A DNA stretch of 32,827 bases. It comes from Ionaspis alba. Taxonomy: Eukaryota. The notes under the pieces are model-generated. The model saw nothing but the letters and a program-made list of their open reading frames with translations, was not told the origin of the DNA and searched no databases. Shown here piece by piece: positions 1 through 30,017 of this stretch (positions are counted from its first letter, which is position 1; each line of letters begins with the position of its first letter). Where the stretch lies: positions 1-32,827 of the forward strand of contig CAXUUL010000099.1 of the NCBI GenBank assembly GCA_964255285.1. The letters are read 5' to 3'. The translations under genes and the position numbers were made by a program.

Positions 1-761
1 ACCCTAACCCTCTCTCCTCTTCCCCGACCACGCCGAAACCTCAATCCGACCTCCCCCTCCCCAACCAACCACCTCCACCGCCTTCCCAAACTCCCCGCAT
101 CCGTCCCCAGCGCCTCAGCACACTCCTCCCAGTCATGGCGCGATAGACGCAACTTCGAGAGGACGAGATCAACGAGGGCGTGATCGTCGATATCTGTCCA
201 TTCATCGTCTCTACCCCTGCAGTATCCCGAGTTGTCGAAGTCGTCTGTTTTCGTGGCTGGTCTGGTGTGCGTTAATGAGTTGAGTGTCGGTGTCGGCAGA
301 GGCTGTAGGGTTTGGAAATCGGAGCAGCGGAGACCAAGAGGAATGGAGGGAGGTGCGCGACGCTGACGCTTGGGTGTTTGGTAGGGATTTTCTTTGTCGA
401 GCAATCGGTCTGGCGCATCGCTCTCAAAAAGGATACGGGATCGCTTCTTGCTTGCTGGTGGAGGTGTGCAGAGTGCTCTTCTCGATTGGATGCTGTGCGC
501 GCGCACAGGTAGCGTAGGAGGTGTCTGTGGGGCTGACAGAGGATATCTGTTTGTTGGTGTTGAGGATTTAGAGGCTGTGGTCGGGAAGGGTGGTTGCGTG
601 TTTAGCAGAGAATGGAGGGCTCGACAAGAGGCTAGAATTCCGTTAATGCTCGGGGCTGCGGGCGAGAGAGGTGGTGTGTTGATGGGTGGAGGTTTGATGT
701 AGGGTTGGGAGCGCCGGAGAGGAGGACGGATGTCGCAAGGGAGGGCGGAAGGGAGGAGCAT
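1..761 (-). CDS. Hypothetical protein, Pro/Ser-rich with a C-terminal Myb/SANT-like helical segment; runs off the left edge
   Basis: ATG at 761 (MLLPSALPCDIRPPLRRSQPY...) opens a frame with no stop to position 1, which is why the ORF track omits it. Contains TPKRQRRAPPSIPLGL and WTDIDDHALVDLVLSKLRLSRHDWEECAEALG...LGRRWRWL. Confidence 0.7.
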   Translation of the reverse strand, partial: MLLPSALPCDIRPPLRRSQPYIKPPPINTPPLSPAAPSINGILASCRALHSLLNTQPPFPTTASKSSTPTNRYPLSAPQTPPTLPVRAHSIQSRRALCTPPPASKKRSRILFESDAPDRLLDKENPYQTPKRQRRAPPSIPLGLRCSDFQTLQPLPTPTLNSLTHTRPATKTDDFDNSGYCRGRDDEWTDIDDHALVDLVLSKLRLSRHDWEECAEALGTDAGSLGRRWRWLVGEGEVGLRFRRGRGRGERVR

Positions 762-1953
762 TGTCGGATGACAGAGAAAGAACCGTCGAGAGTAGTGGTG
801 TAGGGACGAATTGAGGAGAGGGCTGTTGTGCGTGAGTGCTCGCGATGAAGTCAGATCTATTGTTGTGGTTGCGAGGCGGTGAGCGATGCGCCGGAGGCGA
901 TGGAGATCGCAATATGAGAGCTGGCGATGCGCGAAGCGTGTCGATATATTCCTGAAACGTATGCGATCAAATTGATATAATTTCCATCATTGTCTACCTG
1001 GTGGTATTGGTGATGATGGTGACGGCCGTGGTGAGCGGTGTAGATTGGTGAGGAAGTTCAGAATATAGAATGCGCCGGGAGCGAAGGAAGAAAACGTGCC
1101 TGCAGGCTTAGCTGGCCCCTCGGCGTCCCAATGGCTTTATTCTTCCGCGTGCCTGCCCCTGTGACACATTCTATTCCTGCCCACAACGCGGATCCCAGGC
1201 TTTTCTTCCGTAGTCTTCGATCTACGGCACAGATTGAGATCTGGAGCAATTGTTGAGGTAGTAAAGAGATCGGTTAGGGGATAGTATGACCTCATCTGTT
1301 TACTCAAAGACTCTTCAGGCTTGTGGACGGGCTTTCTACTTGACTCCTGCCTCGAAAATACTCACCTTGGTCTATCCTGAGGGACTCGGGTCGATGGAAG
1401 GAAGAGACAGAGTTGTATCTCCATGGCCACAAACATGGAACCTGTCCTCTCCATCAAAGAGAATCAAGTTCTTCGCCAACTTCTATTCTACTCTAAATCA
1501 GTGTTTCTAGTCATGACGAGGAATCTGAACCATTTGCATCCCTATTGCGGCTTCTCAGCTCTATTCTGCAATACAAGAACAGAATCTGACCTTCTCTATG
1601 GCTGCACAACGCTTTACGCGCCGTTATTTATGAACGCGTCACTTTGAAATGCCGCGCGTCGGTTTCGCGCCAGAAAATGTAAACCAATTAGGCTTAGTCC
1701 ACCAAGGCTACCACAAATCTTACAATCTTCGAGTGCTACAAAATCACTTTCTTTCAACATGCGAGCGATAACACTTAGTGACGCGTATATTCAGCTAAAG
1801 AGTGTGCTTTCTCTATAGTAGCATGACTGCGCTGCGACTGCTCCATCGCCACCCTCCCGCGTTCCTTAGTTTAAGTGACAGCAGTCGTGAAAGCTATGAT
1901 ACGGATCTCGAAAAGATGATGGAGGAAATTGATTATCAAAGCTTGTCAAAAAA

Positions 1954-2739
1954 TTAAGTCTGAGCGTCTAGTACTGTCAGCAGTGCTTCCACGAGAATTG
2001 CAACGATGATTCTTACAAGCAGCATCTTCCTCAGAGTGCTTGGTCTGGGCGTCTAGTTCTCAATCAGTGTTGCTCATGCTTCAAAGAAAAAGGATATTGA
2101 TCCTACAGCTAGTATCTTCTTCAGAGCGCTTGGTCTGGGCATCTGATATTTGTATCAGCATTGCTCGATGTCAGGGTACGTGGGGGTTTTTTTACATGAC
2201 GTGTTGTCTTCGGCTGGGGTACGCTTCTTGGTCTGCGCATAGGCAGAATCGTCCTTAGCAGCATCACGCTTCTTGGTCTGGGCATAGGAAGTGTCGTCCT
2301 CGGCAGCATCACGCTTTTTGGTTTGGGCGTATGAAGTGTCGTCTTCATACGGGTCCCTTTTCTTGGTCTGGGCGTAAGCTGTATCGTCCACAGATGGGGT
2401 CCGTTTCTTGGTCTGAGCATAGGCCGTATCGTCCTCGGCAGAGTTCCGTTTCCTAGTCTGAGCATAGGCTGTATCTTCCACAGCTAGAGCTCGCTTCTTG
2501 GTCTGAGCATAGGCCGTATCGTCTACATTTGGAGATCTCTTCTTGGTTTGAGCATAGGCCGTGTCGTCCTCACCACGACGGATTACAGGACTCATGACCG
2601 CTTTGCCTGAAAATACCGTCAGTAAAGAATGATCGGACGTGCCCCAATCGACGAAGAACTGACCGTCCAGAGGGGCAGGCAGAGCCTGTACTCCAAAGGC
2701 AAAGATAGAGGCAAGGTAGATGATCTTGGTAAGCTGCAT
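1954..2739 (-). CDS. Secreted Kex2-processed repeat protein (KEP); putative dikaritin-type RiPP precursor, 190 aa, 11 core repeats
   Basis: Exons 2739-2664, 2606-2196, 2142-2107, 2052-2017, 1967-1954 total 573 nt, all introns GT..AG with branch sites. Signal peptide MQLTKIIYLASIFAFGVQA, pro-region ending in RR, then repeats such as EDDTAYAQTKKR; the last unit ends AAYAQT-stop (TAA 1956-1954). Confidence 0.92.
2196..2574 (-). repeat. Coding tandem repeat, about 45-bp unit, 8 full copies plus the start of a ninth
   Basis: The motif (t/c)ttggt(c/t)tg(a/g)gc(a/g)ta recurs at about 45-nt spacing on the + strand and encodes 15-aa units xxx[VEK][DE]D[TS][AS]YAQT[KR]KR; the first unit is 13 aa. Confidence 0.95.
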
Positions 2740-4482
2740 ATTGAGGAGTATCTGCAAGTCCTTTCAAGGAAAGAGTGTTATAGAGTTTTTTGGTATTGAA
2801 AATTGATTGTTAAGAGTCTGATGAAGATGAGATGTTTTCAATAATGGGTGGATTTGCTGGGGCTTTTATGTCCAGCTCTACTCCTCCGGAAAGCTGCCAC
2901 ATTGCTCCGAGTCATCGACTTTATCCGACTTTGAAATCGACGAGGTATTGCTGATTGCCGTCAGGATGTAGCTCATGCAAGCCTCGAACGCAGTATTATT
3001 CACCCAGATTGAATGAGATGCATTCGAGCCACTCCACTTCGACAATTTGTCTTCACCGCTATTCCAGAGGACGGAACTGATCCAATATCCGCCTGTCTCA
3101 ATTGACAGATGATATGTGGTTTTGCTGTTGCACTTGCCTTCTTCGACCTTTTGCATGGTCGATCGCCAATTGACGAAGGATTTATCAGCATGCCATGGCT
3201 CTCTAAGGCCTCCAGCGTGGTTTGAGCGGATCGAGCTAAAACCCCTCACGGTGATATGCTGCCGGTGGCCCACAGATGTTCAGGTGACCTTCGATCTGTG
3301 GTCGTCACCTCGGGGTATGGGTATGCTGACAGACCACGAGAACATCAACAGTGCCACGACTACCCCAAGCTCACTATCTAGGGGCAAGTGAGTGCCATAG
3401 GCTGTGAAGATACTGATGAAGCTGATCGCATATCTCATGACGATCCTCATGTCGTCGAATGGTTTGTCAGACATCTTCCTGTTTGAGCAATCCTTAATAC
3501 CTATTGTCAAGGACCAGTCCCTAGATGTAATCTTTGGGATCGAGCTCTCTCTGTCTCTACTCTACAAGCGTGTCCAGAACAATCGCTAGAATCTAATATA
3601 CAGTACACATAATTTGTGTCTAATACTTTTCCTGTCCCAAATCATCAATGTCAATATTTGAGAGGCTCGATTAACCTCGCGTAACAGCTACATTAGTGCC
3701 CGCTGTCATGCAGATAGCGAACCTTCCGTACTTGCATACTCTGAACCTACATGTACTCGAACCAAACGCACAATGACATCACTAGAGCAAATGCCTATGT
3801 ATGAGCATGCAGTTCCTCAAGGCCTCCCACCGTTGCGTCCATGCGTGCATCGTTCCAATCTGGTGTATCCAAGTGGTCTGCACTTGCAGGCGACTTCTTT
3901 CCGTTCCAAATTTGCAGATCTTGGGTACGTGCGGCGGAGTGAGAACCAATCGTTGCTCAAATATACTAGCTCCAGCCAGCGATGCTGCACTTCTCAATGT
4001 CGCGTTATTCGGGGCACTGCTATATTCTTGCCAGAGCCGACTTGGCGTAGTATTACCAATCTCTGCTGCAGCTTCGTGCTGAATCCTGAAGGAGTGTTCA
4101 TTCTTCAGCTACCTCAAGTATCACAGCACAATGTAATGCCGCCAGCATCATGCATGATTTCTATGGCCCTGTTATCAGTCTCCGCACTGGTACGATGATC
4201 ATTATCATTATCATACAGTTGATCCTTACTCAATCCAGATCGAAGCGGTGTATCCCAAAACTTGTTGATCTTGGGAGATAAGCGGAGCCAAGGCAAGAGC
4301 AAGACGTCGAGCCATCTGCTACAACAGACAACACCCACACACCGCAAGACAAGCCAAGATGGTCTGCACATATCAATCCCGGTTCAGGTTCCCCGGGCAC
4401 TCTCATGTTCTAAGGGACCTCTCCGGTGTTTGTCTTTATCTTCAATATCATCAAAACTTTCAGAGCAAGCTGTGCATTCACA

Positions 4483-5678
4483 ATGGAGAAATATGCCCCT
4501 TCGGATTCAAGTAGTGGCTCTGCCACAACCCCTTTCTTAGACAAAGAGTCAGACGTTGCAGTTGAAGAGGGAGCTTTGAGAGACATCCCAAATGCGAACG
4601 ACAATCAATCATCACGGCGGAGACTCCAAAGAGAATGGGCAATTGTGCACCTCGTTTTGATAGGGATCAATCTTTTCCTGTTTTTATCTTATTCTAGTTG
4701 GATGACAGCAAGGCAATCGCATGGTCCTCGGCTCATATACTGTAAGTATGCCCTTCGACCACATTGGCTATTTTCTGAATGCTTTGCACCAGCGCCTGCT
4801 CGTGATGTCCTGGACTTTCAAACAAAGCGATTCGAACTGGAAGTAATATACTTGTCGAACGGGTCTATGAATCCCGAGAAGCCAACGGACTTCAACGGCG
4901 AGCCCAGACCAGAGCTTGATGCAGCGTGGCAGAATCTTCTACACCGTAAAATCCCTTTCTAATTTGAGCCAGCGTCGAGAAGCTCACAGCCAATGCCGTA
5001 GACCAAAACATCCGTCTGAAGAAAGAGGAACTCGGAGAATTTGCCAATGACGACAGCCTCATTCAGCTCGCGGACGGCTCTGGATACTATGCGACGTTCG
5101 CAGTCTTCCACGCTCTGCATTGCATAAAGCGGCTACATCACTTCATCCATTTGGACCATTACTATCCAAACATCTCCGAGGCAGATGCTCGACGTCTGAG
5201 ACATCACACTGGTCAGTCACCTCCATAATACGCATTCTCTCTTCCAGGCCAGACATTCACTGATGTACGTGGCAGAGCATTGTCTTGATAGTCTGCGCCA
5301 AAGCGTGCAATGCAATGCCGATATAACAGTTTTCCCCTTGCACTGGGGAGCTGGGTATGCCTTTCACGCACTTGAGACAAAGATATCGTTCTAATATGCT
5401 GCAACAGTCAGCGGATCCCAATCGGCAGGGACACTGGCAAACACCAGTGCGTCAATTGGGATCGACTGAAGAAGTGGATGGAGGAGCGATCTTTCAATGC
5501 TTTTGAGCCTGGTCTGCTCGTACATCTAACCTTAGGTCAGTACCTAATGGATCCGAGGCGGGTACTTGTGTTCTTTGGACTGATCTGCCGACCAGGACCT
5601 GCATTCCCTGATGGCAAGGGAGAGGAAATTGGGATTTTGAAGGATTATAATCTGCATGTTGGAGGTCATCAAGGATAG
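4483..5678 (+). CDS. UstYa-like / DUF3328 oxidase (putative RiPP cyclase)
   Basis: Exons 4483-4741, 4793-4945, 5002-5211, 5276-5354, 5408-5535, 5596-5678. N-terminal TM helix (WAIVHLVLIGINLFLFLSY), YSPA, F-x-GEPRPELDAAWQNLL, VFHALHCIKRL, HHTEHCLDSLRQSVQCNAD, W-G, HQCVNWDRLKKW. These are the DUF3328 hallmarks, including both HxxHC motifs. Confidence 0.93.
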
Positions 5679-6354: not shown

Positions 6355-9300
6355 ATGTCGACATCATCTTCGAATGCCGTCACAAATCCGTTACCGCCTC
6401 AACGACAACTGCTCTCCATATCGGGGAAACGTACCGACACCATAACCTCCAAGCTTTACGAATGCATGCAAAGAATTGAAGAGTCCTACAAAGCCTTCAT
6501 CTGTCAGCATGATTTAGAACGTATTTGGTCCAACAATGAGGATTTCCGGAAAACCCTTCTACCTGCCGTGTGGACCGATGATGAGATTGTTGTTCTGAGA
6601 CGGGACTTCATCAAAATACTCTCTACACTCATCTTGATAAGCGCCTTCAATACTATCAAGAATTTCCGTTCAATCTTTTTCAATACAATCACCCATAATC
6701 AGCCTCTAAATGATCATAATTTACCTTTTACCCGAGAAAATCTCCGGTCGTTCCTAGATATCCGACATACACATCTGTTTTACGAAAAGCAGTTTGTCTT
6801 GATACCAGTACTACTGGAAGAGAGCGAGGAAAAGCCAAAGCTAGATTTTTCATCCGATTACCGACTTCCATTTGTCTATGAGAGACCAACGATCGGATTC
6901 GGTGGCTATGGCACAGTTGATGAGGTGGGTATTGCCCCGGGATACCTGGTGGATAAGGGAAGACCAAATTGGCCCAACGTGCGTTCCTCTCTATCCAGAC
7001 ACGCAGAGAAGTACTGAGATAATGATCGTCCAGATCGAAGCTGTTGCTTGCAAAAGAATCGAGACGAGCGCGAGCGAAGCCGATTACCTCAAAGAGGTTG
7101 CTAACCTCCAGATCCTGAAGCAGAGCCATACATCTCATCACAGGATCATGCTTCATCTTGCCACCATAATCCACGGTCGATCTTTCAATATCCTCCTACC
7201 ACTAGCGGTTCATGGAGACTTGGAGCTATTTCTCAATAGTGGCATCAGTTATGCTAATGGGGGGGATGGCGAAGTGATATATAACCCCAAAATCAGGTTC
7301 CCAAATTTGACGCCTGGCAATTTGCCCACGGCCCTCTTTGATGAATTCTTGCAACTAGCTGATGGCCTTCGGTGGCTTCACCACGAACTTCGCGTTGGCC
7401 CTGATGCAGACCTCTACGGTGCCCATATGGATCTGAAGCCCAGCAACGTTCTGGTCAACTCCCATCGATCCCATCCAGTAGGTAAATGGATGTTATCGGA
7501 TTTCGGAATATCTGTCTTCAAAGCGAGTACCGGGAGCCAAGAGACTCCCGTTGTTTCCATTAGGGATGTACACGAACAACTCACAATGAAGACAAGGGCA
7601 AAAAGAGGTCATGGACCTTATCAGGCCCCTGAAGTGCAGCCCAAGGGTGAAAAATCTGTAGGTCGCAGAAGCGATGTGTGGTCATTAGCGTGTATTTTCT
7701 GTGAGGTTCTTGCATTCGCGCTCAGAGGCTCCGAAGAACTCAACCACTTTCGAACGCAGCGACGGAATAGTGGGAACGATTATTTCTACAGCCCTCTTGT
7801 ATCGAACGACACTCTGGCTGTGAATCCGGCAGTCACAGAATACCAATTGCGACCCTCCGTTTGTGATTGGCTGGACAGGCTTCACACACGATACCTCCAA
7901 CCCCAAAGATGGTTGGAATGTTGTGTCGGTACTATCAAGAAGATCTTGCTCGTCGAAGGTCGGCCAGATGCAAAGGAAACCCAAAGGCTCCTAAGGCATG
8001 CAAGGGACCACCTCCGTGAGTCGCATGCCGACGCGGCTCAGACATGCCCCATCCTGAATCCGGAATCGACTTCTCAAGTCAATCCTACTCTGGTACGAGG
8101 AGACCATCGGAGACCTTCAGTCTCATTTTCTCCTGCCCCAGATGATCCGCAAGACTCTGCCGCTTCCGGAGCTTCCACGCATCGTTCTGAAGCAAATCGT
8201 GCGACTCAATCGTCCACGCCGAAAACGACAGAATCTCCGAGACCTACCCGACGCCCTCCACCAATACCTACCGCTCTTCCCGCTAGTATAGACACTCAAC
8301 AGACACCTATAGAGAAGCCGTTGAATAGCGATGAGTCTCTCGTGACACATCAACGGTCATCAAGTCTCGATAGTTCCATCGCAACCGGAGTCATGTCGCG
8401 TACAATTTTGTCCGATACGACTATGCAACTACCAGTACCCAAAGGCGACATCTTACACGTTGCGGTGAGCTCATCAGGCGAACGTGTCGCATGTCTGTTC
8501 AAGGATTGCATTTACGTCTATTCGATCGATGCTGGTACTGCGAGTAGGGGAGATGGTATACGGCTTCCTCTCAACCTTGACAAAGGATGGCAAATGCTTG
8601 CCCTGACTGGGCCATACATAGTCGCATGGGGATGGTCATCAACTAAACGCAAAAGACTAGTGAGTTGCCTCGAGTGCGAGTGCGATAGAATCCTGACATC
8701 CGTGAGATCTATATAGGGAAGCTCAATAGGTCTCCTTGTGAATTACCGGTTCCCGACCATGCGTTAACTGGTAATCTTTCTGGGGTTGCCATCTCAGCCC
8801 AAGGAGTGATTGCTTTCATTTGTGATCGGGAACTTAGACTATCGTTCCTCGAGTTAGTGCTTGGTCACCTTTCCTGTTTTACTGTCCGCTTACTGTGGAC
8901 TAAACAGGTCCCTTCGCGACGACGGTTATAAGAATGAGGAGACGAAGACGGCAGAGTCTGGTTACGTTTTCAGCCAAGCAGCTTTTAGTTCATCAGGCAA
9001 CTATCTCTATGCTTGGGCTTATGGTCAAAGCAAAGACTATCTCTATGTCTGGGAGATGCAAGAGAACAAAGCCACGCCATATCACGATGGTCCTTACACT
9101 GCAGTCAGTATTCATATCCTTCTTTTAGAGTTCTGGAACACTAACAGATTGCTAGAAACATTACGGTGATGCCAACGTTGGCCTGCTTCCTTACGAATCC
9201 TTCCTAGGCTGCATCGTCCAGACGCCAGAAAAAGCGTTATTCCCAGCCCAGTTCTGGAACTCGGAAGGGGATGGCAAGACTGTATTACCGAAGCTGGAGA

Positions 9301-20906: not shown

Positions 20907-22575
20907 TCAAAGCATGGGCTTCACGTCATCCGCAATTCTAAAAGGCGCTCCTGTTTTACTCTTGATCTCCTCAACGGTGACACCCTCAGCCAGCTCGATG
21001 AGGGTCAAGCCTTTTGAGAAATCAACATCAAACACACAAAGCTCGGTGATGATACGTGACACGCACGCCTTCCCCGTCAACGGGAAAGCGCAGAAAGGGA
21101 CAATCTTTGGATTGCCCTTCTTGTCAGTGTGCTCCATCGTGATGACGACTTTCGTCATTGACGGATTGGAGACGAGATCCATAGCACCTCCAAATCCTTT
21201 TATCTTGCCTGGAAGCATCCCTAGGTTAATGTCAATTTTTGCACAAGAAGTTGGAAAGGGGGAGAAGGGCACATACAGTTGGCAAGATCTCCATGTGCGC
21301 TCACTTGCATCGCACCCAATATAGTGAGATCAATTCTGCCACTTCTAATCATACCAAAAGACTCTTCCGACCCAAAGCAAGCCGCGCCTTTCAATAGAGT
21401 CACGGTCTCCTTGCCTGCGTTGATGAGATCCGGGTCCTCACTTCCTTCTTGTGGATAGGGGCCAAGACCCAGTATCCCATTCTCGGACTGTAGCTGCACT
21501 TCAACCGAAGGATCAACGAAAGAAGGTGCAAGCATAGGCATTCCGATACCCAAGTTGGCGTACATGCCGTTCTTGAATTCCTTCGCCGCCCGTCGAACAA
21601 TGCGTTCCCGCTTGTTGGCAGTCTCTCCGGCACCAAGAGCAAGTTTCGTTTGTTTCGCAGGATCCTTGGAATATGTTCTCTTTTCAATCTGCTTCTCCGC
21701 GGTACTCTGAATCACGCGATCTACGTAGATCCCAGGGACGTGAACGGCGGCGGGATCGATCTCGCCGGGCTCAACAATATGCTCTGCCTCGACGATTGTC
21801 ATCTTTGCAGCCCGAGCCATTGCACCGTTGAAGTTAGCGGCAGCATAGCGGAATTGACAGTTGCCAAGCTTGTCGGCTTTCCAGGCTTTGATGAAGGCGT
21901 AGTCGGCGTTGATAGCTTCTTCCATGATGTAGGATTTGTTGTTGAAGACTCTGACATCTCGTGCTCTACCATACTCTTTGACTGTGCCGTCTGAATTGTG
22001 TAGAAGAGGGAGTTCCCCAGTTTGTACTACCGTGCCGAAAGCAGCCGGTGTGTAGAAGGCTGGAATACCGGCTCCTGCAGCTCGACACCGTTCTGCCAAG
22101 GTCCCTTGAGGTGTGAGCTCGAGCTCAATTTCGCCGGAGAGGTACATCTTCTCAAAAGTCTTGTTCTCGCCCACATAGCTCGCTATCATCTTCTTGATTT
22201 GCTTCGAGGCCAACAGCAGCCCCAGCCCAGAGCCATCGATTCCTGCATTATTTGACACGGCCGTCAGACCATTGATATGAGGTGACTTCACGACCTCATT
22301 GATCAACGTGTCTGGCACTCCACAAAGACCAAAACCACCAGCGAGTAGTGTAACATCAGATTTCATGTCCTTGATAGCTTCGGCCGCAGAGGGCAGGACT
22401 TTATTGATTTCATAGCGGCAGGTGGAAGAGGCGAAGGTGCGAGCGAAGAGGCCTGTTGGCTGTGAAGAGAAAGTCAGCTCATCTTGTAGAGAAGATGCCA
22501 TGTCTGGGGTCTGACATTCGAAGAGTGTTTACAATATGCTTTTACAGTTCGACCAAGCAATGAAGCGGGTGACAT
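20907..22575 (-). CDS. Succinyl-CoA:3-oxoacid CoA-transferase (SCOT family; candidate 3-oxoadipate CoA-transferase)
   Basis: [44 protein letters not shown] (catalytic Glu), GGAMDL. Probable start ATG 22575 ([14 protein letters not shown], presequence-like), one 5-prime intron ending CAG before PTGLF, and one intron near 21222-21276. Confidence 0.9.
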
Positions 22576-23017
22576 TTTCGGGAAGCCAATGCGCCCAGCC
22601 AAGACGCATGCTGCGAATTGATTGCTCTATTAATAGCAAAGGTAGAAGCCTCGTAGGCTCTTTTGTAGGATCATTGATGTGGGCATTTAATCTCGAATGC
22701 ATGTAGGGACTTGGAAGTCCTCGAGCTATATAGCTCCAGTCCCTCCCGTATAAGCGGCAGGGAGTAAGGAAGCCGGCAGTTTGCGCGGGGGTGGGAGAGG
22801 GTTGCCTTCTGCCCCTGTTCCGCGCGGTCCATTATGACAGAGTCTCTTGACCGCGTGGAGATGCTAGAATCCAGGCACGCCATACGATTGACTGATTTCA
22901 AGTAAATGTATTGAGCATTGTTGTGCTATGGGTATCGTGGGTACGGAGAGCCCATCAAATAGGCTCCTGCCGCAATTGTTTGCCGGGCTAAAATCATGAT
23001 GCAGCTCCAATCTGATC

Positions 23018-24312
23018 TTATTCCCGAACGATCAAACTTGCCATGCCCATGCCAGTCCCTATGCACATGCTGATTACGCCAAGCTCCTGTCCTTGCCTCT
23101 CCAACTCTGGAAGGAGTGTAGCAAGCTGCCGAGCTCCTGTTGCGCCAAGTGGATGACCCAAGGCAATGGCGCCGCCTTTCGGGTTCACCTTCTCGACGTC
23201 GATACCCAATTTTCTGATACTGTAAAGAGCCTGGCTTGCGAATGCCTCGTTGATCTCCCAAATGCCCACATCGTTATTGTGAATACCTGTGGCCTGGAGT
23301 AGCGCTGGAATGGCGACAGCAGGACCAATCCCCATCTCATCGGGAGGTACCCCAACTACCTGTGTGCCCACCCACTTGCCAATAATGCTGTCGCGTAATC
23401 CCAGTGCTTCGGCGGTACTTCTCCTCATCATCAAAGCCGCTGCAGCACCATCAGAGACCTGGGAGGAGTTCCCGGCCGTGGAAGCTCCATCAGGTTTGAA
23501 AACGGGCTTGAGCTTAGCCATGGATTCGATAGAAGCATTGTGTCTGATGCCATCGTCTTTCGTAACTACTACTGTCTCCGGCGAGGCATCGGAGCCTTCC
23601 ATGGGTGGATTCTCCGCCTCAATGGATACAATCTCGCTGTCGAAAAGCCCCTCGTTCTGTGCTTTGGCAGCTTTGGTGTGGCTTGCGACTCCAAATGCAT
23701 CCTGATCTGACCTGTTGATCCCATACCGTTCAGCAACATTTTCACTTGTAATCCCCATTGACATGACACAGTCTCTTGCATCTTTCACGGGCGAATTCTT
23801 TAGCTCAGGCCAGAGAACAGCAGGTATTGCTTTAGAGTCGTAGTTCCTCGTCATGCTCTCCATTCCCGCACCAATTCCGACATCTATTCTACCAATGGCA
23901 ATCGAGTCGGCCACATTGGTGATTGCTTGTAGACTTGATGAGCAAGCCCGATTGACCGTGTAGAGAGAGGTTGTATTAGGGTAGCCGACGTGGCAGAGGG
24001 TCATCCGCCCTGCTTTTGAGCCACCGAGCTCGGAAAGCACTGTACCAACAGCGACATCTTGTACGCTGGCAGGATCGAGCTTGGGGTTCTTCTCGAGAGT
24101 TGCTCTCAGGACCTGAAAGCACGGGAGATGATGAGAAGCAATCAATGCGCTAGTAGGAGATCTCGTACAGTGGCGAGCATCTGCTCAGGGTATGCATTTC
24201 GTAGACCACCTTTGTACGCCCGCGTTACCGGTGTTCTAAGAGCTGATAGAAAGACAACGTCATTTGGGGTTTTCTGGAGAATGTTCTTCAAGCCTTTCTG
24301 AGCGTACGCCAT
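23018..24312 (-). CDS. 3-ketoacyl-CoA thiolase (candidate 3-oxoadipyl-CoA thiolase)
   Basis: Exon 1 24312-24169 (MAYAQKGLKNILQKTPNDVVFLSALRTPVTR), intron 24168-24113, exon 2 with NRACSS, GMESMT, STAGNSSQVSDGAAA, NEAF, GHPLGATG, CIGTG. Confidence 0.93.
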
Positions 24313-25115: not shown

Positions 25116-27691
25116 TTACCATAGAGCACCCTTCCCTAGCATGAATATGACAAAAGATGTAGCAAATTCTACTAGATATATACCTAGAAACCAACAGATC
25201 CAAGCAGAGCTGCCAGTACATATCCTATAAGCCATTGCGTAACAGCTTTGACAGATCCGGAAACATCGGCAGAGAGGCTCCCTAATGACCGCTTCAGCAC
25301 GAACACGTCGGATCCACTTAGGTGCTCCATGCGACCCTACATCCTCTGTACCAGATGAGTTATCATTATCCGTGAATCCCTCCCAGCTGACGTTTCGTGC
25401 TCGAACATCCGCGAGGAGCTCCTCAAACTTCTCGACAAATCCGTCCGGTGCATGGAGTTTGTGCCGAGCTATTTGCAAAGCAGTATTGCCTTCGTTGTCA
25501 CTTGCTTCTGTGTCGATCCCGCAAAGGCCGAAAGTAAGTAAAACTTCGAGGACTTCGAGACCACCAGACAAAGCAGCATAGTGGAGAATTGACCGTCGAC
25601 GATTGGAAAGTACGGTATAAGAAGCGCCGCGATGTAGCAGAAGTCGTGTCATGTCATCAGCATTGTGAAGTATTGCTGTACTCAGCGGATTGTAGCCTTC
25701 AGATTCTGAGCCATCGATTTCAGCTCCATAGTCTAATAGGATTTGAGCCAAGGCGAGATGGTTGTGGACCGCTGTGTCATTCAATGGCGTTCTTCCCTCA
25801 TAGTTCCGTCTGTTCACATCCACACCAGCTTCTGCAAGGCACTCGACGACATCTGCACCACTGTTAAAGGTTACTGCGATGTGTAGAGCATTATTTCCGT
25901 CATTGACAACCCTTTCAGTATCGGCACCAGCACCCAAAAGCAGTTTTATGCTGGTAGAGCTATTTGCGCGTGCAGCAGCATGCAATGCTGTACAACGAGA
26001 GTGGTTGAACACATCCACATCGGCGTGGGCTTTGATGAGATCTTTTACTGCCACAGTGTCACCAATCCGAGCCGCCCACAGGAGAGGAGTGTTGCCTTTT
26101 ATATCAGCACAAGCGACCAGGTTTTGGGAAGCTGTTCGTAACTCTTCCTTTAAGTCGTAAGAGAGGAGGCCAAGAACAATTTTATGGACTCTAGACAATT
26201 GATAATCTTCCAGGTAACCATTAGTATCAGGAAACAAAGCTCGAAGTGTTTCTTGATCTGCTGAATCTTCCAGAATGCAGTCCCAGGCGAGCTCAAAGGG
26301 TGTTCTATAGATTGTGAGATCGTGGTCTTTCGAGTGAAAGAAAGGTCTAGTGCTTACGGTCCCCCCCAAAATAGCTCGAGACGAGGATCTGCTCGAGCCT
26401 GAACCAGGAACTTGCAGGATTTCATTTTATGAAGCGTGATGGAAATCTATGTCGAATCGTTACCATGAGAAGTTACCTCATAACACTCTCCAACATGACC
26501 TACAGCTAGAGCTGATGCTCCATTGGGGCCTGAATCATCGGGGGACGCTAATCCCATACTGAAAAGGCGTTTCATGCCGTCCAGGTTCTCCGAAACTACC
26601 AATCGAAAGATCTCTGCGGTGACAGGAACAATTCGCCTAATGGTCAAAGACATACAAACTTGGCGTGAATGAGTGGTTGTGATTGAGAAAGCGAGAGCCG
26701 CTGTGAGAAACCAGTTTGGAAACATGTAATGCACGTAACTTCGGATTGTTGAACGACAATCGCAATCTATTTCTGTGCATCTTCGACAGTTCCTCACAGG
26801 GTATCCTGAGTAGCCGATGAACAGCGCTCCTATGACGTTCCTAGGCCAGGCTGGTGAACGGATTGCTCCCATGCCGTGGCAAACGCATCTGCAGTACAAA
26901 GTACATGGAGACCGTGGATACTTGGATACATGAGCTCGGATATGAATGATACAATTGAGAGGCCCGAGTCCATTCGCAGACACCAGTGCGGGATGGCGGG
27001 AGCTGCTGGAAGAGATTTGCTGAAGGAAAAGGTTTTGTAGGCTGCTTTGGCTACGTATAAGATTGGTAAGCAGCCTGGATTGCTCACCTAGCTGCTGGTC
27101 GATATGGATGCCGGCATAGCGCTCGCTCGCTCGCAGCTCGGTCGCAATGCCATGCATCTCATCAATTGAAAGCCCCATACGAGCCTGATAGGAGCTAAGG
27201 TATCTCAGCAAGACTCTCTTAAATAATGAGTGTGTGATTGGGGGTAGGGAAGCTTACAAGTTGGCCACTAATATCTGAGTTATGATGTCCAATTTTATGT
27301 CACGTAAGCACTGTTTGAACTCCGCGATAGTGGTTTTGGCTCTTGCCCATTCCGACCTTGAGACCTTGATTGATCCTGGAGGGTTCCCTAACCTTACGAG
27401 CCTGTACTGAATGAGCTCATCCAGCTGGAGTAACTTATCTTTCGCACGATTTGCCAGCGTTGAGACGTGTCCCAATCCTTCTCGAGATGATTCCCAGCTT
27501 TGTGTATTTCGAATGAGGTGTCTTTGAATACCGTCAAGAGTGACCTGGAAATCAGAGACTTCATTGATTAATGCCAATAGCTCGTCCGGCGCATTGCGAA
27601 GTCTCTTGATCTTCGCAAGTGATTTGGCAACACCCTCGGCAGCTCCTAGTACAGTAATGATGCCAGCAGCCACGGAGAAGGGGTCAGCCAT
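25116..27691 (-). CDS. Ankyrin-repeat protein with an N-terminal HeLo-like (fungal STAND N-terminal-type) helical domain and a hydrophobic C-terminus
   Basis: Four exons (donors at 27257, 26503, ~26357). Starts MADPFSVAAGIITVLGAAEGVAKSLAKIKRLRNAPDELLALINEVSD, has a CTLYCRCVCH motif, and ankyrin repeats GNTPLLWAA, TALHAAA, GNNALHIAV, GRTPLN, GYNPLSTAI, SILHYAA, GNTALQIA. Confidence 0.82.
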
Positions 27692-28890
27692 GACAATCAA
27701 GGAGATACGTCGTCCAGTCGGAGTCAGGCCGTCAAGGGTATATGAAGAAACAAATTAAGGGACTGAGAGGGATAATATAAATACCCGTTATCTCAATCTT
27801 CTGAAACCACCTGCTTGAAAATGAATGGAAGAAATGGGCAGCAACTTGTTCAGCTTGTACAAGTTCTCGAAGCAGTACGGCGCAGCATTCCTGAAGTCTC
27901 AAAGATCGACCATGACAACGAAGCTTAGGCAAAAGTCTGACAAGAGGAATGGAAGACTTTGCGTTCATATTGAGGCATGACATCGAGGCAGTAATGCCGC
28001 AGCCAGTCCTTTTGAATTGGTCGAAACATCAAGTGCAGACGGAGGGATACTGCCTTACACAATAGGAGAAGCCTTTGCACCGCCGTATAGTTGCTCTCAA
28101 GCGCTGAGCTCTTGTTCAAAGTTTTGGACCCTTTACCACTGTCATAACGAAGGTCCACCTATCATGGCATAACGACACACACCATTCCATTATTTGTATT
28201 CGGGCGAAAGTGTCCAATGTATCGTACAGTCGCTGCCTCTGAGCCCTGGAGGACTGAAATTGGTTATCTGAACTTCATTGTAAAACCCCAAGCTGTGTCC
28301 GTCTGGAGTCGCTCGGTCGTGAGCATTTCACGATTGGTGGTCTATATCCCATTCGCCATCAAAACGCCTGAGATTGAGAACGAGTGTGAGTATGTGAATT
28401 TGTATCGACCAAGCCATGACCACGAGAATGTAACTAACCGTGAGATTGTCGCGCACAAAAGCCTTTCGTGAAAACCCTCCACGAGCGCGTATTGGGCGAG
28501 GTCTCCTAATTTAGCGTCTGGACGCCCAAGAAGCCCCGTGGCCAGATGTGTCTTGCCTCAATTTTCTCAAGCAGACCACTCCTGTCCACCATGACGAATG
28601 CAGAATTGTCATATCTAGCTTTCCCCCAAACTTGACTTTCCTGACCCCGCCATTCGGTGACACAGTTTCAATAATTCATTGGGAAATATAGCTACTCTCT
28701 GCAGATGAAAATGAGAAATAATGGCATACGTATTAATCTGAGATCGATCGTGCTACACTCCACTTATCATAGACCTGCCTAGCAATTCTCGAGCTCTTTT
28801 TTCAGCTCAAATTACACTGTCTCGCTGAAATAACCAGAATCGCATTCAACGATACTGCTTTCAACTTCCTCATTTGCCTCATTTGGAAAC

Positions 28891-30017
28891 ATGGATCCCT
28901 CCCAGGTGGAGGTCCCTCCAATGAAAGACCTCACAATCATCAACATCACCGAAAATGTTCACGCTATAAACTCTCGCTGCCCTGATCCTCGAACGAAATA
29001 CCTCTTCGAAAGACTAGTGACTCACCTCCATGATTTTGCCCGTGAGACCCGCCTCAGCACTCCAGAATGGATGGCCGCAATCGAATTCCTGACAAAAGTT
29101 GGGCAGATATGTAGTGACGTCCGGCAGGTACCTATTGAGTTTCTTGATGGTCCTTAGAGCAGAGCAGCAACGAGCTAACGAGCTGCTCTGCAGGAGTTCA
29201 TCCTTCTATCTGACATTCTCGGCCTCTCTCTCCTCGTTGACTCGATTGACCACCCCAAACCCCCTCACTCAACTGAAGGCACTGTTCTTGGCCCCTTTCA
29301 CACGCATGAAGCCAAAAACCTCCCGAACGGTGATATCATGTCTGGGGACCCGGATGGCGAGCCCCTCCTAGTCCTGTGCACCCTCAAGAACACCAGTGGC
29401 AAACCCATTGAGGGAGCAAAGATAGACATCTGGGAAACAGACTCCAAAGGGTTTTATGATGTACAGTATGCAGAACGAGATGGTCCAGATGGGAGAGCCG
29501 TACTACATAGTGACAAAGAGGGAATGTTCTGGTTCAAGGCCATCGTGCCAGTTCCATATCCCATCCCGCATGATGGGCCTGTAGGGAAGCTGTTGAAAGT
29601 GCTGAGGAGGCATCCTTATCGGCCGAGTCATATGCATTTCATGTTTGAAAAAGAAGGATTTGACCATCTGATCACGTAAGTGCTTCATTATACACCTAGT
29701 TCTACGCCTCCATATTCAAAGACTATGTGTTGACTCCCCTGGCTAGAGCACTATATCTCCGCAACGATCCGTACGAGACTTCGGATGCCGTGTTTGGCGT
29801 CAAGAACTCGTTGGTCGTTGATCTGGGCATTGTAACAAAGGAAATGGTGCAGAAATACAGCGTTGCTCCCAATTCAAAATTGATGACTTATGATTTTGTT
29901 TTGGTGACGGACGACGAAGCCATGAGATTGAAGGAGCAGAAGGCAAGGGAAGCGATGGAGGCACAAGGGAGAAGGATGAAGTTCTATCATGGACTGCCAG
30001 TACCTGATGTGGACTAA
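28891..30017 (+). CDS. Intradiol ring-cleavage dioxygenase (hydroxyquinol/catechol 1,2-dioxygenase type)
   Basis: Exons 28891-29127, 29194-29675, 29747-30017. RQEFILLSDILGLS, TEGTVLGPF, iron-ligand motifs GFYDVQY, PYPIPHDGP, RPSHMHF, and SDAVFGVK. Confidence 0.93.

Follow-up and report, generated by a model that had tools for sequence, protein, structure and literature searches.

A candidate two-gene dikaritin-type locus in Ionaspis alba: a Kex2-repeat precursor with a YAQT core, divergently paired with a UstYa/DUF3328 oxidase

Ustiloxins and phomopsins are potent tubulin binders. To our knowledge, only a handful of products of this dikaritin type have been characterised, as against thousands of predicted pairs of a Kex2-processed repeat protein (KEP) and a DUF3328 protein. 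The protease Kex2 cleaves after Lys-Arg (KR) in the late Golgi, and carboxypeptidases take off the basic tail that is left. In the ustiloxin and phomopsin rings, Tyr is joined to Ile at position 3 (PMC6514808, PMC7329392; these two papers, as well as PMC12435403 and PMC12048977, are cited throughout for excerpted parts of their text), and the ustiloxin precursor UstA is cut into 13-14-mers ahead of cyclisation (PMC6514808). Asperipin-2a, a product with ethers from Tyr side chains to beta-carbons, comes from a cluster with a single DUF3328 gene and, in the excerpted account, neither a tyrosinase nor a methyltransferase (PMC6514808). DUF3328 proteins are described as membrane-anchored, lumenal, binuclear-copper, O2-dependent enzymes; among them, the peptide cyclase AprY is copper- and O2-dependent, as reported there from Chiang et al., and CctR works as a homodimer that depends on O2, with two coppers bound by HxxHC(x)nHxxHC, a disordered N-terminus in the cytosol and lumenal cysteines engaged in disulfides (PMC12435403). 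In a survey of 7878 KEP genes, 1758 had a DUF3328 gene nearby, DUF3328 genes peaked directly next to the KEP genes, and Tyr was enriched in KEPs with such a neighbour (65.6% vs 38.2%; PMC7329392). Here we describe a stretch of 32,827 nucleotides from Ionaspis alba (GenBank assembly GCA_964255285.1, contig CAXUUL010000099.1, forward strand; hereafter, the window) in which a gene for a repeat-containing precursor and a gene for a UstYa/DUF3328 oxidase are immediate neighbours, head-to-head, with 1743 bp from ATG to ATG, exactly as implied by the spacing of ~1.74 kb in the original prediction. We argue that this locus is probably a self-contained two-gene module for a peptide made on ribosomes and modified after translation (a RiPP) of the dikaritin, or ustiloxin-like, kind in a fungus of the Pezizomycotina.

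The precursor gene (1954-2739, minus strand; ATG at 2739, TAA stop at 1954-1956) is predicted, by a splice model and its translation, to encode 209 amino acids in four exons (2196-2739, 2107-2142, 2017-2052 and 1954-1967). The protein begins with a predicted signal peptide (residues 1-19, 2683-2739, minus strand), which has its hydropathy maximum at residues 6-16 and ends with the cleavage-like site VQA, and continues with a pro-region (residues 20-55, 2575-2682, minus strand) closed by RR at residues 54-55. The rest (1957-2574, minus strand) is an array of 11 units, each made up of a variable spacer, [DE][DN], [TSA][AS], YAQT and an end that is KKR, RKR, KR, KH or the stop. The YAQT tetrad is invariant in 11 of the 11 units, with no amino-acid variation at all, and the two residues ahead of Tyr are TA (five units), TS (four), SA (one) or AA (one). 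Besides the RR of the pro-region, the dibasic sites comprise nine KR (seven KKR, one RKR and one KR), with KH after unit 10 and a stop codon after unit 11; with 11 cores, nine KR and one RR, the protein lies well above three Kex2-delimited cores. A Pfam profile search matched the precursor to no family, MF_alpha and MF_alpha_N included, which, together with the adjacent DUF3328 gene, sets it apart from the alpha-factor-type pheromone KEPs. Reading and translating the spliced model thus bore out the coordinates, the 11 units and the signal peptide of the original prediction; the pattern [TSA][AS]YAQT given there agrees with the counted residues, and its phrase that the units are mostly closed by dibasic sites corresponds to KR after 9 of the 11.

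Eight of the units, each of 15 residues, are encoded in exon 1, where Tandem Repeats Finder reports a 45-nt period in 7.8 copies (2221-2572), whereas each of the remaining three spans one predicted intron. The exon-1 frame, a minus-strand open reading frame (ORF) from 2739, runs into GTAAAA after unit 8. Introns 1 (2143-2195, 53 nt), 2 (2053-2106, 54 nt) and 3 (1968-2016, 49 nt), all on the minus strand, are predicted with GT..AG ends and in phase 1; each splits a Tyr codon between the first and second bases, and a branch-like sequence, CTGAT or CTGAC (CTGAT in intron 1), is present close to its 3' end. Their removal restores TAT or TAC (TAT in the case of intron 1), keeps the frame, adds three further YAQT units and places TAA straight after the last YAQT. 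The last unit ends at YAQT-stop, and hence Thr marks the C-terminal boundary of the core. The three introns (1968-2195) also resemble each other near their 3' ends and share the same phase and the same codon, so that the last units probably arose by duplication of a unit plus its intron.

The repeats make it possible to compare the units with each other. Nei-Gojobori counts over all unit pairs gave, for the YAQT codons of the 11 units, a proportion of synonymous differences (pS) of 0.675 and a proportion of nonsynonymous differences (pN) of 0, i.e. a pN/pS of 0; the ratio was 0.035 for YAQTKKR of the first 8 units, 0.42 for positions -2..-1 before Tyr and 0.65 for spacer positions -8..-5. The synonymous variation involves all four core codons (TAT/TAC 7:4, GCT/GCC/GCG 5:5:1, CAA/CAG 2:9 and ACC/ACT 9:2 in the 11 units), and five different codons are in use for the closing Arg. 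A pS of 0.675 combined with a pN of 0 indicates that the array is old, that it has not been recently homogenised and that the core is constrained. To judge from these counts, it is selection that maintains the YAQT tetrad together with the dibasic site, and this is the signature of a processed core peptide.

On the other side of the intergenic region, the UstYa/DUF3328 gene (4483-5678, plus strand) is modelled with six exons (4483-4741, 4793-4945, 5002-5211, 5276-5354, 5408-5535 and 5596-5678) and canonical predicted introns of 51-64 nt, and would encode 303 amino acids; the model is supported by PF11807 matches and by a colinear alignment with two relatives, P0001 and P0002. PF11807, the profile with which the original prediction proposed to check the gene, matched four separate exon ORFs with 38.9 bits (profile positions 3-92), 48.9 bits (95-166), 37.4 bits (159-193) and 18.3 bits (201-220), jointly spanning positions 3-220; the gathering cut-off is 25 bits, so that the first three matches are above it and the fourth below. 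The gene is intact and has both HxxHC motifs, as had been claimed: HALHC (residues 174-178, 5109-5123, plus strand), which is invariant in alignment A1, and HTEHC (residues 206-210, 5205-5283, plus strand, split by intron 3 at 5212-5275), with its H and C columns conserved in P0001 and P0002. The spacing of the two is HxxHC(x)27HxxHC, and two further cysteines, C220 and C248, are also conserved in P0001 and P0002. Among 19-residue stretches, residues 52-71 alone are strongly hydrophobic (Kyte-Doolittle maximum 2.02); they underlie a single predicted transmembrane helix at about residues 52-73 (4636-4701, plus strand), which follows the basic stretch RRRLQRE. The protein thus combines the PF11807 score, the HxxHC(x)nHxxHC pattern, a single predicted transmembrane helix and extra cysteines, as is typical of UstYa/DUF3328 enzymes. 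By analogy with CctR (PMC12435403), the basic stretch and the helix imply a cytosolic N-terminus and a putative lumenal catalytic domain, and the precursor and the catalytic domain of the oxidase are predicted to share the lumen.

Among named database entries, oxidase exon 3 is closest to a hypothetical protein of 303 aa in Letharia columbiana, a lichen fungus (57% identity across the exon); the full-length model is colinear with it, with 128 of 297 aligned positions identical, both motifs and Cys220/Cys248 included. A search of the PDB with the UstYa alignment gave no sequence hit at E <= 1. In the source run, a second contig of 609 nt covers 4068-4675 (the oxidase promoter and exon 1) with 60 differences and one indel, i.e. 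~10% divergence; its depth is 17.8 vs 111, its flanks are identical, and it may represent a second haplotype, strain or nucleus.

The link between the two genes can be judged from relatives of the oxidase. A scan of metagenome contigs of the Joint Genome Institute (JGI) with an alignment of UstYa relatives yielded 11 loci that encode such a relative. Three of these (L001, L006 and L007) begin within the oxidase gene and have no upstream DNA, and L010, with ~0.7 kb upstream only, is a duplicate of L008; the seven loci with upstream DNA make up the informative set, in which L002-L005 are four near-identical contigs of one lineage. In six of the seven (L002-L005, L008 and L009, i.e. three lineages), the oxidase gene has a small gene upstream of it in divergent orientation, and the first 26-27 residues encoded by this small gene align without gaps to the 27-residue leader of the window precursor. 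The four leaders are MQLTKIIYLASIFAFGVQALPAPLDG in the window, MQFSKIISIIMALALGVQAAPAPVPE in L009, MQLSKIISVFFALVLGAQAAPAPVPGE in L002-L005 and MQPQTLLTLMALLAIGAQALPTVAQN in L008. When the window leader served as a phmmer query against all 2455 ATG-initiated N-termini in the window and the 11 loci, the E values were 1.9e-4 for L009, 4.5e-4 for L002-L005 and 0.068 for L008, with the next, unrelated N-terminus at 4.8.

Behind the signal peptide, the likeness ends: the paired genes are modelled with an intron at this very point and then encode unrelated peptides, namely two units of the form KDENW[KDR]F...C, one of them closed by KR or NR, in L009 and L002-L005, and ~120 residues of imperfect [SE]xADEA[WL]DGKVV repeats, without KR, in L008. 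The other neighbours are unrelated as well (HET, Pho88, XPA and striatin in L003, an ABC (ATP-binding cassette) transporter in L008 and an MFS (major facilitator superfamily) transporter in L001), and besides the leader gene and the oxidase nothing in the window matches the related loci. The recurrence of the pairing in 6 of the 7 loci marks it as what is, on this comparison, a conserved two-gene module. A conserved leader and a conserved enzyme with a replaced core are what a substrate-enzyme pair is expected to leave behind, and chance adjacency is not; we take the pattern, as far as leader alignments can tell, to be of the former kind.

The peptides of L002-L005 (~8950-9207, minus strand) and L009 (~261-506, minus strand) are secreted peptides of ~70-75 aa, and their two DENWxF..C units are too few repeats for KEP mining, so that they may represent an unrecognised class of DUF3328 substrates. 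The L008 gene (3126-3651, minus strand), ~2 kb divergently upstream of its UstYa relative, encodes a secreted protein of ~150 aa, and just past this gene comes the ABC transporter (TMD0 + ABC_tran).

The gene content of the window was surveyed by a Pfam scan of 27 large ORFs window-wide (beyond 20.7 kb, a selection of ~137 aa up) and all 129 further ORFs of >=62 aa in 1-20.7 kb. Among these 129 + 27 ORFs there was no tyrosinase (UstQ/PhomQ type), methyltransferase, cytochrome P450, S41 peptidase, MFS or ABC transporter, regulator or second DUF3328 protein, and likewise no flavin-containing monooxygenase (FMO) or pyridoxal phosphate (PLP) enzyme. The biosynthetic unit is, by this apparent gene content, the two genes themselves.

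The work of these two genes can be envisaged as follows. The precursor would enter the endoplasmic reticulum via its signal peptide, and Kex2 would cut it after RR or KR in the late secretory pathway, yielding about ten peptides of 12-15 residues, from which a carboxypeptidase specific for basic residues would trim the tail to leave the C-terminus ...YAQT. The single-pass DUF3328 protein, with its lumenal HxxHC(x)27HxxHC binuclear-copper domain, would then oxidatively modify the peptide in the lumen. This modification could be an aryl ether from Tyr1 to the beta-carbon of residue 3 (Gln), closing a 13-membered ring, and would be followed by N-terminal trimming by peptidases. By analogy, a ustiloxin-like Tyr1-Gln3 ether in a 13-membered ring would be the most economical chemistry, and we propose it tentatively, as a possible rather than a probable outcome. 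We infer here that the transcripts are expressed and spliced as modelled, that Kex2 processes the precursor, that the oxidase acts on the YAQT peptide and that the modification is of the type indicated.

Several points weigh against this interpretation, some against the proposed ring and others against the pairing on which it builds. The cross-link of ustiloxins and phomopsins engages an Ile, where residue 3 of this core is Gln; no tyrosinase was found in the scanned ORFs, whereas the ustiloxin and phomopsin cyclisation needs one according to the excerpted accounts (PMC7329392, PMC6514808); and Tyr is absent from the peptides that accompany the related oxidases, which indicates that Tyr chemistry is not a conserved trait of this oxidase subfamily. 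No gene of the leader type lies upstream in L011, whose oxidase is the most divergent (26-31% identity), and the linkage as a whole draws on three extra lineages from metagenome contigs and on a short signal-peptide similarity. In addition, the expression of the precursor, its co-expression with the oxidase and its three introns are predictions, and the product itself is hypothetical. The same departures from the ustiloxin pattern, i.e. Gln3 in place of the Ile of known Tyr-Ile ethers and a window scan without a tyrosinase, speak for an alternative in which the two-gene module is retained and the oxidase performs other chemistry, such as hydroxylation at a beta or gamma position, halogenation or a Tyr-independent cross-link. 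DUF3328 enzymes are described as hydroxylating, halogenating, isomerising and cyclising their substrates (PMC12435403, PMC12048977), so that a different modification is a serious rival, and next to the related oxidases the cores contain Trp, Phe and Cys or else lack aromatic residues entirely. We nevertheless regard this alternative as rather unlikely: all 11 units have the Tyr, which, like that of YAIG, is the first residue of a Y-A-x-x tetrad, and in asperipin-2a the Tyr ethers to beta-carbons come from a single DUF3328 enzyme (PMC6514808).

Two other explanations were considered. The repeat protein could be an ordinary KEP that gives rise to linear secreted peptides (signals, pheromone-like or antimicrobial), next to a DUF3328 gene of unrelated function; indeed, 78% of the surveyed KEPs have no DUF3328 gene nearby (PMC7329392), the Pfam scan found no other tailoring, transport or regulator gene in the window, and expression is predicted only. 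This we consider quite improbable, since a leader-homologous gene and a UstYa relative are divergently paired in six of the seven informative loci, with nothing else in common, and neither MF_alpha nor any other Pfam family matches the precursor. Alternatively, the repeat ORF might encode no peptide precursor but an acidic or basic, secreted repeat protein of a structural or effector-like nature, or the 3' mini-exons might have decayed, with exon 1 (194 aa, 8 units) making up the whole gene; the introns are predicted only, and an unspliced 194-aa ORF does exist. Yet each of the three predicted splicing events rebuilds a Tyr codon, and with it YAQT, in the correct frame, and the stop then comes directly behind YAQT, while the confinement of pN 0 to the tetrad and the low pN/pS of YAQTKKR fit a processed core and not a structural repeat. 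This explanation is, in our view, the least credible of all and very improbable; moreover, the interpretation as a precursor holds even with the 8-unit reading.

Beyond the two-gene module itself, a more general picture can be drawn, which we consider doubtful when taken with all its parts. In this picture, each member of an undescribed subfamily of copper oxidases of the UstYa type would be firmly tied to a divergently oriented gene for a small secreted peptide, with MQ[LF][ST]KII...LG[AV]QA[AL]PAP as the one conserved signal peptide, while the cores would be swapped between lineages (YAQT in 11 copies, DENWxF..C in two copies in two lineages and a non-KR, ADEAxDGKVV-like repeat). One enzyme lineage would thus have been re-aimed at unrelated peptides, most of its partners would escape KEP mining because of fewer than three repeats or no KR, and the YAQT product would be a new Tyr-Gln ether macrocycle resembling the ustiloxins.

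As for the novelty of the core, relatives of the full precursor were sought in several collections. An index of 5.8 billion proteins (length class 99-317 aa) gave 17 word-sharing candidates, none of which was scored as a homologue, and JGI metagenome contigs gave 77 pattern matches to the precursor, none confirmed. A full HMMER scan of 1.84 billion representative proteins returned 12 matches at E <= 1e-3; the nine that were inspected, i.e. all except P0012, P0014 and P0016 (547-967 aa), were rejected as repeat-driven matches inside long unrelated proteins, none of them with a signal peptide and KR-delimited YAQT units. One protein, P0008 (419 aa, no signal peptide), has six SAYAQPTRRR-like repeats before a globular domain, and its likeness to the YAQT unit looks coincidental. 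In 8.1 million openly licensed PMC papers and in bioRxiv text, which does not extend to MIBiG, Nagano 2016 or Ding 2016, there was no joint mention of YAQT with ustiloxin and no report of a YAQT core, in keeping with the statement of the original prediction that the core was not recognised; the letters YAQT occur in 41 papers, of which the 20 looked at are unrelated. The leader family was not found in the searchable literature text either. Since 2560 of the surveyed KEPs have no homologue (PMC7329392), an orphan core is the rule and not a surprise. In another organism of the same study (run X3), a 24.9-kb contig contains an array with a 45-nt period and two exact 32-33-nt matches to window positions 2250-2316; these cover the spacer-Tyr-Ala part, the letters after Tyr-Ala differ, and the array may belong to a sister precursor with another core.

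The divergent intergenic region (1743 bp, 2740-4482) is presumed to be a bidirectional promoter and holds no supported gene: its ORFs have no Pfam match and no match in the related loci, and a candidate third gene at 2878-3474 (minus strand) was rejected, having no valid in-frame intron besides. A 328-aa open frame without a Pfam family (3-986, minus strand) runs off the start of the window downstream of the precursor. The other Pfam matches in the window are a kinase-like gene (6845-8713), a V-ATPase subunit f-like ORF, ELP3, a succinyl-CoA ligase, an amino-acid permease, a 3-oxoacid CoA-transferase, a thiolase, an ankyrin protein and a catechol dioxygenase, and an ORF at 27257-27754 has a PigL_N/SesA-like N-terminal domain with a score under the Pfam cut-off. 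The 3-oxoacid/beta-ketoadipate:succinyl-CoA transferase, the thiolase and the catechol dioxygenase lie within 9 kb (21224-24184 and 29179-29676) and may serve aromatic catabolism via beta-ketoadipate, unrelated to the peptide locus. A second sequencing run contains identical low-depth pieces of the window. The best matches of the CoA-transferase ORF reach 91-94% identity, whereas those with a species name reach at most 84% and are spread across several classes of the Pezizomycotina. In a tree of this single protein (27 rows chosen from the 120 hits, plus the window), the window falls into a clade with 100/99 support, which is placed next to Sclerophora (Coniocybomycetes) at the weak support of 47/50 and apart from the Dothideomycetes, Eurotiomycetes and two Lecanoromycetes that were sampled.

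As a test case the locus is very compact, since it comprises two genes, only one of them for an enzyme, and a core of four residues; it could reveal how a lone DUF3328 copper enzyme alters a Tyr-Ala-Gln-Thr peptide when there is no tyrosinase. Among the relatives, the swapped cores behind a conserved leader amount to a natural series for the study of substrate recognition by DUF3328 enzymes, and suggest that mining based on repeats and KR misses partners of UstYa enzymes.

Of the described systems, ustiloxin B (UstA, UstYa/UstYb and UstQ; Aspergillus flavus and Ustilaginoidea virens) is similar in that its precursor has a signal peptide and many Tyr-first tetrapeptides with Ala in position 2; UstA has YAIG repeats flanked by ED and KR, and here YAQT is preceded by acidic residues and followed by KR (PMC6514808). 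In both cases, a PF11807 oxidase with two HxxHC motifs is encoded nearby. The differences are that there is one DUF3328 gene here and not two; that enzymes of the tyrosinase, methyltransferase, P450, FMO and PLP types are missing from the ORFs scanned here; that positions 3-4 are Gln-Thr in place of Ile-Gly; that there are 11 repeats vs 16; and that three predicted introns lie inside Tyr codons. Hence, the locus has the features of a dikaritin precursor and is without two of the five genes by which the class was first defined, those for the tyrosinase and the methyltransferase (Ding et al., quoted in PMC12048977). The asperipin-2a cluster (aprA, aprY, aprR and aprT; Aspergillus flavus) is similarly minimal, with a KEP-type precursor, a single DUF3328 gene and, in the excerpted descriptions, no tyrosinase (PMC6514808, PMC7329392); the core there is FYYTGY and the product bicyclic, as compared to YAQT here, and this locus has no adjacent reductase or transporter, whereas the relatives L001 (MFS) and L008 (ABC) do have a transporter nearby.

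Specific likeness also exists to CctR, the cyclochlorotine hydroxylase (a DUF3328 protein; PMC12435403), which shares the disordered N-terminus, the one transmembrane helix, the lumenal helical domain with HxxHC(x)nHxxHC and the further cysteines; CctR, however, hydroxylates the product of a nonribosomal peptide synthetase, whereas the presumed substrate here is ribosomal. In the lichen 'dikaritin homologue' clusters of a recent survey, the excerpted text reports that repeated-core precursors were not found (PMC12048977), whereas a textbook one is present here, beside an oxidase that has its nearest named relative in a lichen fungus. In the catalogued KEP-DUF3328 pairs (Umemura 2020, PMC7329392), the DUF3328 gene lies within 15 genes of the KEP gene, and here it is the immediate neighbour. 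Taken together, these comparisons make the locus, most likely, a credible new member of the dikaritin/KEP-DUF3328 class, which is already well catalogued.

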